Shown here: in pieces, positions 1 to 3,000 of the stretch
Numbering within the stretch: the first letter of the stretch is position 1
Layout of the letters: every line of letters begins with the position of its first letter
Virus record (IMG/VR): IMGVR_UViG_2671180275_000011
Length of the DNA stretch: 11,394 nucleotides
DNA from: a virus
Taxonomy: Duplodnaviria; Heunggongvirae; Uroviricota; Caudoviricetes
Reading direction: 5' to 3' (one strand)
Program-made: the position numbers

Positions 1-3000
1 ATGACAAAGGCGAAGTTAACGGATATTCAGATAAAGGCGTGGATAAAGGCCGGGGAACGCTTTGATGCCCGCGCCGATGGTAACGGCCTGTATTTGTGCT
101 TCCCTGAAAAATATAACGCCCCATTCTGGCGCTATCGTTACCGGATGGCCGGGAAACAACGTGCTATGCACATCGGCTCATATTCCGACCTGTCACTAAG
201 TAAAGCCCGCGCCACCGTTAAAGAACTGGCCGCCCGTGTTGCGCTGGGCCATGACGTGGCCGGAGAAAAGCAGGCCCGAAAAGCGGCGGCACTGGCACGG
301 ATTGAGGAAGAAAAAAACGCCCTTCGCGTGTCAGAACTGGCAGCCGAATACTACGAACGGCAAATACTACCCCGCTGGAAACATCCCGATATTCTCCGCC
401 GCCGCATAGACAAAGATATCAACCCTCAGATTGGCAGCCTGAAAGTCGAAGACGTTAAACCGCGCCATATTGACGCAATGCTACAGCGCATTATTGACCG
501 CGGAGCGCCAACAGTCGCCAATGATGTTTTGCGATGGACTAAACGGATATTCGACTACGCCATCAAACGCCACGCACTGGAAACAAACCCCGCCGCTGCT
601 TTTGAGTTATCAGATGCTGGTGGGGCTGAAAAAAGCCGCGACCGATGGCTAACCCGTGATGAACTCATTCATTTTTTTCAGGCCATGCGCACAGCTAAAG
701 GATTCAGCCGTGAGAATGAACTCACCATGAAACTGATACTTTGCCTTTGCTGCCGAAAAATGGAGTTGTGCGCCGCACAGTGGGATGAATTTGATTTAGA
801 TAGTGCTGTATGGCGACTCCCTGCCGAACGGGCTAAAAACGGGGATGCCATTGATATCCCACTACCGCCACCAGCGGTGGCATGGTTGCGCGAATTACAC
901 AGCATTTCAGGCGGTAGCCGCTGGGTGCTTCCGGCCCGCAAAATGCAACAGCGCATGATTCCACACATACAGGAAAGCACCCTGCCCGTTGCGCTGGCTA
1001 AGGTTCGCCGGGAAATGCCTGGTGTGCCGGGTTTTACCGTTCACGATTTCCGACGCACAGCCAGAACTCACCTTGCCGCGCTTGGGGTAGACCCTGTAGT
1101 GGCGGAACGCTGCCTGAACCACCGAATTAAAGGCGTTGAGGGTATCTATAACCGCCATCAGTATTTCAATGAACGCCGCCACGCTCTGGAGTTATGGGCC
1201 GACCTGCTGGTGGCTCTGGAACAGGGGGATGAATACAACGTAACCCCCATCACAAAAGCGATTGCAAAATAAAAACATACCGGGGATAGCGCGACGGCGC
1301 GAAAAGCGGGAAACCTTACCGCCTGCCCCGGTTTATTTTTAAGGTAGCGTCAAAGGTAACGTAAACCATGTATGAAAACACATACCCTATTGATACAGCC
1401 GCCAGCATACTGGGGTGTACTCAAAAAAAAATACTGACTGAATGGGCTAAAGGGACAATAAAAATCGCACTTGATTTCGGCCCGGAAAGTTCCATAAACC
1501 GCCAAAGCTACACGGATTACGACAAGTGGGGATATCCGGCCAAGCCGTGGAACATTGCCAGTATTTCAGCGCCAGCAACAAACGATTATTTCCCACCTGA
1601 ATTACTACAACCGGAAGAAGGGGAGAAACTCAGGCTTTTCCCCAATGACAACGAACCTGAATCAATATTGATTTGGAGAAATGTTTACCATCAATACTCA
1701 CAATCCGGGTTCTACTTTGACAGCAACCATAGTGACGCGCAGGTACATGACGGGAAACTTATGGTTGTATCGGATGTTCTCCTGTATGGCTTATGGACTG
1801 TACCTTACGCCGAGTTCTCGCGCGTTCACGCACAGGACACATTCACATTAAAACCGTACACCGATACCCCTTCACTGTCCAAAGTTACAGCAACCTTTAC
1901 ACCACGTGGCGGCTCACGCCGGATAAACGCCCCGGAAAAAAAGAATTTGCGCATTACCGATTCAGAAATGATGGTCATGCAAAAAATACTTGCACAAAGG
2001 CCCGGCTACCAGCGCACAGAACAACCGACAGATGACAGGAATCAGGAAAAGCATGATATACACGGCGGTGTGGAGCGATTCGCGCTGGAACGTGAAAAGG
2101 TTCTCGCGGCTGCCCTGTACGTGGCGTATCACTTCCCTAAAGATGTTGGCAAGACACTTAAATCACATGCCGAAGCCATAGAGAAACACGGTTATCTGTT
2201 CTGGGATGGCAATCCCACCCCAACACCTGACGCGGGACGAATAGCAAAAATATTATCTGATGCCAGACGCTTACCCAATGAATGGAAAATTTTGGGCGGA
2301 AACGCAAAAGCAAAAAGATAATTTTTTAATGAAATTGAAAGCATAAAAGCGTTTTTTTAATACATATGCCAGCATTTTAAAGAAACCGAAAACACCAATA
2401 AAAATGGCGACTAAATTTAGTCGCCTTTACTTTTTCTTGCCTTGCGTATAGCCTCCATTCAGCACCAAAACACTGTAAGAGGCTTTAATCATGGATACCT
2501 TACCCAAATCCGGCTATATGCGCCCGGCACAGGTGATAAACCATTTTCAGATTAGCGAATCGACGCTATGGAACTGGGTTAAAAAAGGTAAATTCCCCAG
2601 CCCGGATAAGCTGGGCGATGGCGTAAGCCGCTTTGATGTTTCCGCTATCCGCCAGTGGCTCGCTGACCGCAAAGGCACGACCAGCACGCGCAATTAACCC
2701 CGTCAGAGAATTTTAATCATGAAAATGCCAGAAAGGCCCGCAACAGGGCCGGGGCGTTCTCACGCCCAAAACAACCACCACACGCCCCACAGAATGGGCG
2801 GCAACCGCAAATATTGCTTGCCTGCCATCGCTGGTGGGCGTTATATTTCCCCGGCTGGTGTAAATCCACCAGCCGGGCGTGGAAACCCGTTTAATGAGCA
2901 AAAGGCGACACAGACGCGCCCAGCGTCTTTTTTTGTGTCGTGCCATCGCGCAACCATGAACAGCGGCAAGGCCCGCACTGTATCTATGGTGGCGCTGGTG

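Follow-up and report, generated by a model that had tools for sequence, protein, structure and literature searches.

Which function can be given to a gene that stands alone between the integrase gene and alpA of a satellite-like genomic island and resembles no described protein family? The question is raised by ORF317, an open reading frame (ORF) for 317 amino acids in a stretch of 11,394 nucleotides (nt) from the IMG/VR virus record IMGVR_UViG_2671180275_000011 (Caudoviricetes); this whole stretch is called the window. The window is a 100% match to a stretch of the Escherichia coli 2012EL-2448 chromosome, in which, according to the RefSeq context, an island of about 10.3 kb is inserted between yicC and dinD. 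ORF317 is a member of an undescribed, fast-evolving, integrase-contiguous family that stands behind a conserved RNA leader. The role favoured for it is that of an excision and induction switch, whose swappable domain would read an external partner, probably from a helper phage, and a probability of roughly 0.4 is attached to this reading. ORF317 overturns nothing known, and what is new falls within the integrase-contiguous genes of satellites, which are known but poorly understood.

A preliminary description had presented ORF317 as an orphan in a variable cargo slot next to the integrase gene, forming a monocistronic unit with its own ribosome-binding site and terminator and as a candidate for a single-gene accessory function. 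The interval is arranged as follows.

1 to 1272, plus strand: gene of a P4-type tyrosine integrase (int) at the left end of the island (Pfam Arm-DNA-bind_3, Phage_int_M and Phage_integrase).
1279 to 1344, plus strand: int-alpA RNA motif (Rfam RF02996), a three-way junction followed by a U-rich tract, filling the 95-nt gap between int and ORF317.
1341 to 1367, plus strand: translation-initiation leader of two tandem AAGGTA(G/A)CGT copies, the second of which supplies a Shine-Dalgarno (SD)-like AAGG, followed by the ATG.
1368 to 2321, plus strand: ORF317, opening with the first ATG after a stop; the start of the protein (MYE.TYP...) is kept in homologues.
2406 to 2438, plus strand: bidirectional intrinsic-terminator-like hairpin (GGCGACTAAATTTAGTCGCC) with a T-run, according to the terminator score on both strands.
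2491 to 2697, plus strand: alpA (Pfam HTH_17 / Phage_AlpA), which closes the "integration zone".

The RNA element at 1279-1344 belongs to RF02996 at full length and above the threshold, being matched by cmscan over model positions 1-71 with 64.2 bits against a gathering score of 35.8 (E 8.7e-12), and its predicted fold has an energy of -33.6 kcal/mol. The start codon of ORF317 follows the end of the motif by about 24 nt. From E. coli to Aeromonas, the spacer between int and the ORF is nearly invariant, while the flanking ORF317 homologues are only 43% identical. Within the wider superfamily to which ORF317 belongs (called X here), the RNA stands directly 5' of the gene in L045, in L047 and in each of the six loci of the ORF317 family that were tested, and it is missing from both sister islands that have no X (L003 and L004). 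An exact-pattern DNA scan of 185,579 species genomes returned 29 loci. Four of these (L016, L017, L030 and L041) lack any integrase context and were discarded as chance matches; the remaining ones belong to Enterobacterales and Betaproteobacteria. The Rfam threshold was reached by 17 of the 18 pattern loci submitted to cmscan. A start codon lies 37-45 nt past the motif core in most of the 24 RNA-bearing loci surveyed, and the layout "AAGG + 5-7mer + (U)GAAGG + related 5-7mer + start codon" is found in 27 loci. The proteins encoded 3' of the RNA fall into at least 14 clusters unrelated by phmmer; ORF317 itself is carried by only two of the pattern-scan loci, and five enterobacterial downstream proteins join its superfamily through their N-terminal domain. 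Thus, in the loci examined, the RF02996 "sRNA" behaves as an intercistronic leader of a hypervariable integrase-contiguous gene, with a start codon held at a fixed distance behind the motif, and has little of the look of a free-standing small RNA between int and alpA. To our knowledge, no function has been given to RF02996, which is typed as an sRNA and listed as a bioinformatic candidate, and a literature search returned no paper linking it to a downstream protein gene.

The signals around the ORF agree in part with the monocistronic unit proposed earlier. An SD-like AAAGG is located 10-14 nt 5' of the ATG, so the predicted ribosome-binding site is present, and the predicted palindromic terminator is a perfect 8-bp hairpin at 2406-2425 with a T-run to 2438 (-13.2 kcal/mol, z -3.4 against shuffles), which compensatory G>A/C>T changes maintain between E. 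coli and Aeromonas. In the gap between int and ORF317, no sigma-70-like promoter was detected, and since this gap is filled by the int-alpA RNA, ORF317 is more likely expressed together with int through the leader. Of the signals of the proposed unit, therefore, only that at the 3' end of ORF317 is clearly its own. The gene is indeed more AT-rich than the replication module, as had been judged by eye: its GC content is 0.469 (0.462 at third codon positions, GC3), whereas the toprim and DUF927 genes have 0.59-0.60 (GC3 0.64-0.67) and int has 0.535.

Beyond the terminator, the SD of alpA is included in the 3' arm of a further hairpin (AGCCUC...GAGGCU, window 2450-2484). Other island types (L047, L049 and L050) display a different but analogous pair at the alpA SD (CCCGTAAC...GTTACGGG). 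This suggests that the translation of alpA is gated by RNA structure, the hairpin being a weak one (z -1.6).

The product of ORF317 is a protein of 36 kDa (pI 7.1) with no hydrophobic segment (maximum hydropathy 1.14), and no enzymatic, nucleotide-binding or membrane domain was found in it. The earlier statement that no motif can be assigned to it was borne out, as Pfam, NCBIfam, PHROGs and PADLOC yielded zero matches; profile searches of PDB sequences with alignments A1 and A5 yielded no match, and all source annotations read "hypothetical protein". An AlphaFold2 model built with 36 homologues has a mean predicted local distance difference test (pLDDT) of 82.6 and, together with the alignments, divides the protein into five parts.

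1368 to 1487, plus strand: residues 1-40, conserved core (YPIDxAAxxLGCxxKKIxTEWAKGTI) modelled as a beta-alpha-alpha-beta winged helix.
1488 to 1937, plus strand: residues 41-190, beta-rich and hypervariable, with at least two unalignable types and a conserved G-L-W strand (pLDDT 74-97).
1938 to 2003, plus strand: residues 191-212, conserved basic strand and helix (KKNLRITxSxMxxMxKxL, or DLWIxRxDLxxL in distant members).
2004 to 2084, plus strand: residues 213-239, variable linker of low conservation, predicted to be disordered (pLDDT below 50 at 214-239).
2085 to 2318, plus strand: residues 240-317, helical domain at the C-terminus, conserved and basic (pI 9.7).

The modelled beta-alpha-alpha-beta unit extends over residues 5-36. 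The conserved strand and helix that follow the beta-rich part are modelled at 194-197 and 198-209 in ORF317 and at 184-187 and 188-200 in P0059, a member only 22% identical, whose elements follow each other in the same order; its head and C-terminal domain are predicted with confidence, its middle poorly. The C-terminal domain, modelled with three helices at residues 241-300, has a motif that opens slightly ahead of it, at residue 236 (ERFAxEREKxLAAALYVAxH...SHAxxI...W...P...KxLSDAxRxPxxWKILGG), and is common to most of the 105 remote representatives of the superfamily. Foldseek searches against PDB and BFVD gave no match at E <0.1, which leaves the confidently modelled beta-rich middle unmatched in structure; cereblon/Lon-like and GroES matches at E 0.1-1 are not credible.

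The earlier suggestion of an N-terminal helix-turn-helix (HTH) proved sound insofar as an HTH-like domain exists. In the model, the N-terminus fits a winged helix of the MerR/Xis/AlpA type, an assignment drawn from the order of secondary-structure elements, a weak HTH_17 match (one of 32 superfamily members, E 0.023) and an hhalign comparison that stays insignificant. As the basic strand and helix at 191-212 resemble the last strand and helix of AlpA/Xis, the beta-rich domain may be an insertion in the wing.

The term "orphan" had to be given up. Homologues of 41-90% identity form 47 clusters in Escherichia, Salmonella, Raoultella, Serratia, Tenebrionibacter and Aeromonas, the identical protein is found on at least 1000 contigs, and a profile search of 1.84 billion representatives extended the family to a superfamily of 105 clusters at E <=0.001, whereas a second, word-indexed protein search with A5 recovered the close family only. 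This unnamed superfamily, defined by alignments A1, A5 and A9, has no Pfam or NCBIfam model, and seven of 32 members touch phrog_7144, a group with no known function. ORF317 carries all of its marks: the N-terminal (Y/C)x(L/I)DxAAxxLGCxxxD/KIxxWxxxGxIxL motif on a beta-alpha-alpha-beta unit, the G-L-W strand, the basic "L-x-I-x-x-x-D/E-L" strand and helix, the H..ER.A..RE.vLAAA helical C-terminal domain, and the position between a P4-type integrase gene and alpA in the orientation of both. By tblastn, neither the 50,697 phage records nor the 72,556 plasmid records yielded a homologue of ORF317, and within the collections searched the family is found only in chromosomal islands.

The order int, X, alpA was found in every locus examined, namely in Escherichia, Salmonella, Tenebrionibacter, Serratia and Aeromonas and, for remote members, in Enterobacter and Chromobacterium. 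All neighbourhoods fetched for close homologues read yicC, int, homologue, alpA and, further on, toprim and DUF927. In Aeromonas, the replication genes are 31-34% identical to those of the window, int being 78% and alpA 83% identical. The remote X of Enterobacter asburiae keeps the order int, X, alpA at another insertion site and beside a P4-type D5_N primase, and so does that of a Chromobacterium island with respect to gene order. Islands with X differ in their replication modules (DUF927, D5_N or PriCT_2) and in their insertion sites.

Different genes at this place in related islands, a check proposed at the outset, were indeed found. Among complete E. coli genomes, the full ORF317 interval is present in 11 and a remnant in one. 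At the E. coli yicC site, the interval is occupied by ORF317, by two other superfamily alleles, by a DUF6387 protein, or by about 500 bp of unrelated non-coding DNA. In a diverged lineage of yicC islands, a 307-aa occupant, full-length in 33 genomes, has the N-terminal two-thirds in common and a different C-terminus, a 321-aa occupant is a full superfamily member, and the third occupant is the DUF6387 protein. Allele L047 has another helical domain in place of the C-terminal domain, which is also replaced in L021, L023 and L026. A much shorter interval was met in at least three sister islands, whose int and alpA-icd segments, where shared, are about 95-96% identical in nucleotides; in L003 and L004, some 500 bp of AT-rich, unrelated DNA stand there, devoid of any ORF of at least 50 aa. 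The slot always harbours one gene, of 188-624 aa where complete and uninterrupted, and the N-terminal domain is common to most enterobacterial occupants. Among about 20 occupants scanned, a Pfam cut-off was reached by DUF6387 alone, itself a family of unknown function. The remnant, L005 (E. coli CFIAFB20180511, 9001-10706), is reduced to int, the RNA leader and the initial 109 codons of ORF317, which are joined to the dinD flank, and shows deletion decay from the right side.

The reading frame proposed in the preliminary description, with its conserved start, is a real and constrained gene, as the ratio of nonsynonymous to synonymous substitution rates (dN/dS) of 0.16-0.21 overall indicates purifying selection. 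In every segment that could be estimated, many divergent ones being too saturated, dN/dS is below 0.4, except for the 23-codon linker in one comparison (0.67). Positive selection as an average property of the gene was thereby ruled out. The divergence has another origin. Where ORF317 homologues are 43-62% identical, int is 86-89% identical. When the window is compared with L002, the N-terminus of the gene has a dS of 0.04, its middle 0.39 and its C-terminus 0.09, and int has 0.14. Between L006 and L009, int has a dN of 0.014 and a dS of 0.28, while the gene has a saturated dS of about 2 and a middle domain of 20% identity. According to the alignment read by eye, an unalignable middle is joined in some alleles to a C-terminal part that hardly differs from that of other alleles. 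The mosaic of dS values and a saturated gene beside a similar int point to old alleles exchanged within a constant frame and not to rapid substitution. This frame is made of the RNA leader on the 5' side and of the terminator and alpA on the 3' side. Such shuffling of alleles is typical of specificity or immunity determinants.

Variation of the int-alpA interval between related islands thus stands from the earlier picture of a variable accessory slot, whereas the free behaviour of a cargo or defence hotspot does not, given the fixed position, the single gene and the fixed distance to the RNA. Conservation at the same position among related islands, regarded at first as speaking against an accessory gene if joined to a housekeeping island function, was largely observed, the housekeeping part excepted.

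The closest parallel is offered by PICMIs, the phage-inducible chromosomal minimalist islands of Vibrio. Excision of PICMI115 requires iolg, the gene located between int and alpA, along with these two genes (PMC10803314). These integrase-overlapping or integrase-contiguous genes (iolg/icg) form 13 families of unknown function, and three of 35 PICMI subfamilies are without such a gene (PMC10803314). ORF317 fits the published definition, being on the same strand as int, 95 nt away from it and devoid of any known domain, so that the likeness is one of position and description. In both cases, the interval from int to alpA has a single gene, which is tightly coupled to int, shares its orientation and belongs to many unrelated or barely related families without known domains that are missing in a minority of elements. 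Two differences are to be mentioned. ORF317 does not overlap int, a conserved structured RNA (RF02996) lying between the two, and its family is found in islands of Enterobacterales, Aeromonas and Betaproteobacteria with C4-RNA immunity and DUF927 or P4-type primases.

Small excision and activator proteins provide the second comparison. AlpA is the master activator and an excisionase-type protein of Gram-negative satellites (PMC6092414, PMC10111431, PMC10803314). Among AlpA, Xis, Vis and TorI (HTH_17 PF12728, Phage_AlpA PF05930) and the N-terminal domains of MerR proteins, ORF317 matches no family hidden Markov model in Pfam, and the modelled fold of its N-terminus falls in the winged-helix class of Xis and MerR. 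It differs from the former in length (317 aa against single domains of 55-100 aa), with an extra beta-rich domain of 150 residues and a C-terminal domain, and in the acidic character of its N-terminal segment. It does not belong to the MerR family either: there is no Pfam MerR match, the winged helix is followed by a beta-rich domain and not by a long dimerisation helix, and no promoter with a 19-20-bp spacer was seen 5' of alpA when the sequence was read by eye. The palindrome at 2406-2425 was also inspected for a surrounding MerR-type promoter, with an unconvincing outcome. Another candidate relative, YfjH of CP4-57 (E. coli K-12, 318 aa), which also occupies an intA-alpA interval, was rejected, as it lies on the opposite strand and the family profiles give it -2 to +4 bits.

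The reading favoured here, a switch of excision and induction, would work as follows. ORF317 would be the third component of an integration and induction zone made of int, the int-alpA RNA, X and alpA in a P4-like or PICI-like satellite (PICI, phage-inducible chromosomal island). It would be produced together with the integrase, from a start codon fixed behind the structured RNA, while its own terminator would insulate alpA. The protein may be a soluble, modular adaptor, in which the winged helix, the basic strand and helix and the basic C-terminal domain would anchor it to island DNA (att or the alpA control region) and/or to Int or AlpA. The large beta-rich domain is the part swapped from one allele to another and would make contact with an external partner that varies, a helper-phage product being the most plausible one. 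In this manner, ORF317 would gate both excision and induction and decide by which phage the island can be mobilised, as a functional analogue of the Vibrio PICMI iolg/icg genes and, in logic, of Stl, the repressor of the Staphylococcus aureus pathogenicity islands (SaPIs). In favour of this reading count the strict position, the association with the RNA, the single-gene slot, the exchange of alleles under constraint, the precedent of PICMI115 and the restriction to chromosomal islands in the collections searched. The anatomy, the synteny, the tie to the RNA, the N-terminal fold class, the purifying selection and the allele exchange are established by the data, whereas expression along with int, binding to DNA or Int, and the part in excision and helper specificity are inferred.

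Several results weigh against this proposal. No operator-like repeat for the ORF317 protein was found in the island, where copies of AAGGTARCGT beyond the tandem pair, taken as candidate operators, do not exceed chance. The hhalign comparison of the N-terminal domain with AlpA is in register but has a probability of 6%. In L003 and L004, whose integrase proteins are 96-98% identical, the RNA and the gene are missing while alpA and the replication genes are kept; as these sister islands persist without X, X is not indispensable for keeping the island. Lastly, the turnover of alleles fits a defence protein equally well.

Indeed, ORF317 might be a dedicated single-gene anti-phage or interference protein, acting by abortive infection or by exclusion of non-helper phages, constitutively expressed, with the beta-rich domain recognising a phage component and the termini delivering the effect. 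This possibility, the strongest competitor and close to what was first suggested, is considered somewhat unlikely. The AT-rich gene with its own terminator adjoining the integrase gene, the replacement of alleles and whole families behind a constant leader and the dispensability in sister islands all speak for it, and satellites do carry defence genes, and the immunity provided by PICMI UP2 and EcCIMP1 depends on uncharacterised genes (PMC10803314, PMC11773190). However, ORF317 has no match among the defence models of PADLOC-DB 2.0, and no convincing one was obtained for about 20 slot occupants: the few matches among 32 superfamily members and 10 other occupants (E >=4e-4) are to long SMC-like models and are read as coiled-coil noise. 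The lack of detected enzymatic, nucleotide-binding or membrane domains does not favour it either, multi-gene or known defence systems were never met in the slot, and the hotspots reported for defence genes lie elsewhere, between prim and fis in PICMIs and between int and psu in satellites of the P4-like kind. Across genera, a single superfamily with an excisionase-like N-terminus dominates the slot and is tied to int and the RNA leader. The strict synteny, the single gene at a fixed distance from the leader, the excisionase-like head and the absence of a convincing defence match thus weaken the interpretation as cargo or as a defence hotspot. Among the functions first offered, that of a regulator is retained.

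A more specific form of the regulatory reading would make ORF317 a master repressor similar to Stl, binding the alpA control region and keeping the island silent until a helper protein binds the variable domain. The likeness to SaPI Stl includes the place beside int, an N-terminal fold of DNA-binding type and highly divergent alleles, thought in Stl to match different helper inducers and to set the helper specificity of the satellite; it is used as a working analogy only. The winged-helix N-terminus, the hypervariable allelic middle domain and the place adjoining int and directly 5' of alpA would suit such a repressor, as would the fact that helper induction of alpA in Gram-negative PICIs is unexplained (PMC10803314). 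Yet there is no sequence or detectable structural relationship with Stl, and stl is divergently transcribed whereas ORF317 runs in the direction of alpA, with a terminator between the two. The 170-bp gap contains no palindromic or repeated operator besides this terminator, reading it by eye revealed no long-spacer promoter of MerR type, no obvious derepression or loss is seen for islands that lack the gene, and Gram-negative satellites are described as driven by an activator, AlpA. A repressor of this kind is accordingly judged quite improbable. Even less can be said for a packaging redirector, comparable to a small terminase or to Rpp, whose winged helix would bind the packaging site of the island and whose C-terminus would bind the helper terminase. 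The scores in favour of it are lower than those obtained with MerR-type proteins, ORF317 is in the integration zone, whereas rpp and terS are in the late zone (PMC10111431), its beta-rich middle is unlike terminase oligomerisation domains, and no cos or pac evidence was found, so that this function is very unlikely.

Two questions are at stake in the choice of an excision and induction switch, namely how Gram-negative satellites sense their helper and switch on AlpA, and what role is played by the gene between int and alpA that is essential in PICMIs (PMC10803314). In its boldest version, the X superfamily would be the missing helper-phage sensor of Gram-negative P4-like and PICI satellites: a winged helix with a swappable sensor, made with the integrase from the int-alpA RNA leader, that would bind a helper product and license AlpA-dependent excision and induction. 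This version is regarded as unlikely as a whole. If it were true, X would be the Gram-negative counterpart of SaPI Stl, and RF02996 would gain a function as a cis-acting leader, and possibly an autoregulatory target, of X. In many enterobacterial, Aeromonas and betaproteobacterial islands, the int-alpA position is taken by a modular protein whose head is excisionase-like and whose body is swapped between alleles, which supplies a genetically tractable candidate for a helper-specificity or excision switch in Shiga toxin-producing E. coli (STEC) strains. If ORF317 were instead a defence protein, it would represent a new single-gene system with a fold unmatched in PDB and BFVD.

The rest of the island fits the four-zone plan of Gram-negative PICIs, in which the integration zone is described with int and alpA only (plan from PMC10111431). 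Its remaining features are the following.

4292 to 5413: toprim gene of the replication zone (Pfam).
5394 to 7232: DUF927 gene of the replication zone (Pfam).
2841 to 3069 and 3355 to 3559: C4/isrK zone, with two C4-type antisense RNAs and isrK/a1b1 elements inside "Icd-like" ORFs.
10250 to 10276, and 12645 to 12671 of L001 (84 nt 5' of window base 1): 27-nt direct repeat, AAAA(C/T)(C/G)GTGTACATA..GTGTACATA.

The two copies of the 27-nt repeat are 10,333 bp apart and are likely the attL and attR cores, giving the island its length of about 10.3 kb. Near the right end, a tRNA-like element at 10081-10162 reaches 35 bits in Rfam (cut-off 29) and is annotated as tRNA-Tyr by RefSeq, and is not called by ARAGORN. 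A 41-nt repeat resembling a tRNA 3' end (T-arm and acceptor) occurs twice, at about 10030-10070 and 10135-10175, and a small match to a tmRNA 3' end lies at 10033-10049. These pieces at 10030-10175 are probably decoy or remnant fragments of attachment sites.

The C4/isrK zone is made of two tandem immunity RNA modules of the P1/P4 type. The first one includes a c4-a1b1 match under the cut-off, isrK at 2854-2933 and a C4 antisense RNA at 2982-3069 (82 bits), and the second one a weaker isrK-like match at 3368-3446 and C4 at 3472-3559 (74 bits). As both modules are inside the ORFs called "Icd-like" by RefSeq, part of that coding annotation may correspond to RNA genes. A second variable position is found directly 3' of alpA (L002, L004, L006-L011, L045, L047, L049 and L050); it harbours a gene of the AntA/AntB antirepressor family in many relatives, at times behind a small ORF, and KilA-N in Chromobacterium, the window having no antirepressor gene there.

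Directly 3' of the DUF927 gene, the AT-rich segment 7267-7509 contains at least 12 copies of the 8-mer GTGGGAAC in both orientations, among which a perfect 30-nt inverted repeat is located at 7267-7296 and 7480-7509. As the origins of Gram-negative PICIs sit downstream of pri (PMC10111431), these iterons are probably the replication origin of the island. A 43-nt stretch of the 3' part of the DUF927 gene (6656-6698) recurs with 91% identity at 8036-8078, within a small ORF at 7932-8222 (NGQTLADM...).

The late zone is decayed, with an SSB fragment, PerC and Mor. In the region 8639-9201, the SSB gene is N-terminally truncated and the PerC gene is flagged as frameshifted by RefSeq, and the right third of the island has the appearance of debris left by recombination. 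An Aeromonas veronii relative (L012/L013, 14085-16528) carries a homologue of the Mu-like major capsid protein gpT, Gp41_Mu and two Mor genes, one Mor gene being retained in the E. coli island; these capsid and Mor genes hint that the island family exploits Mu-like helper phages.

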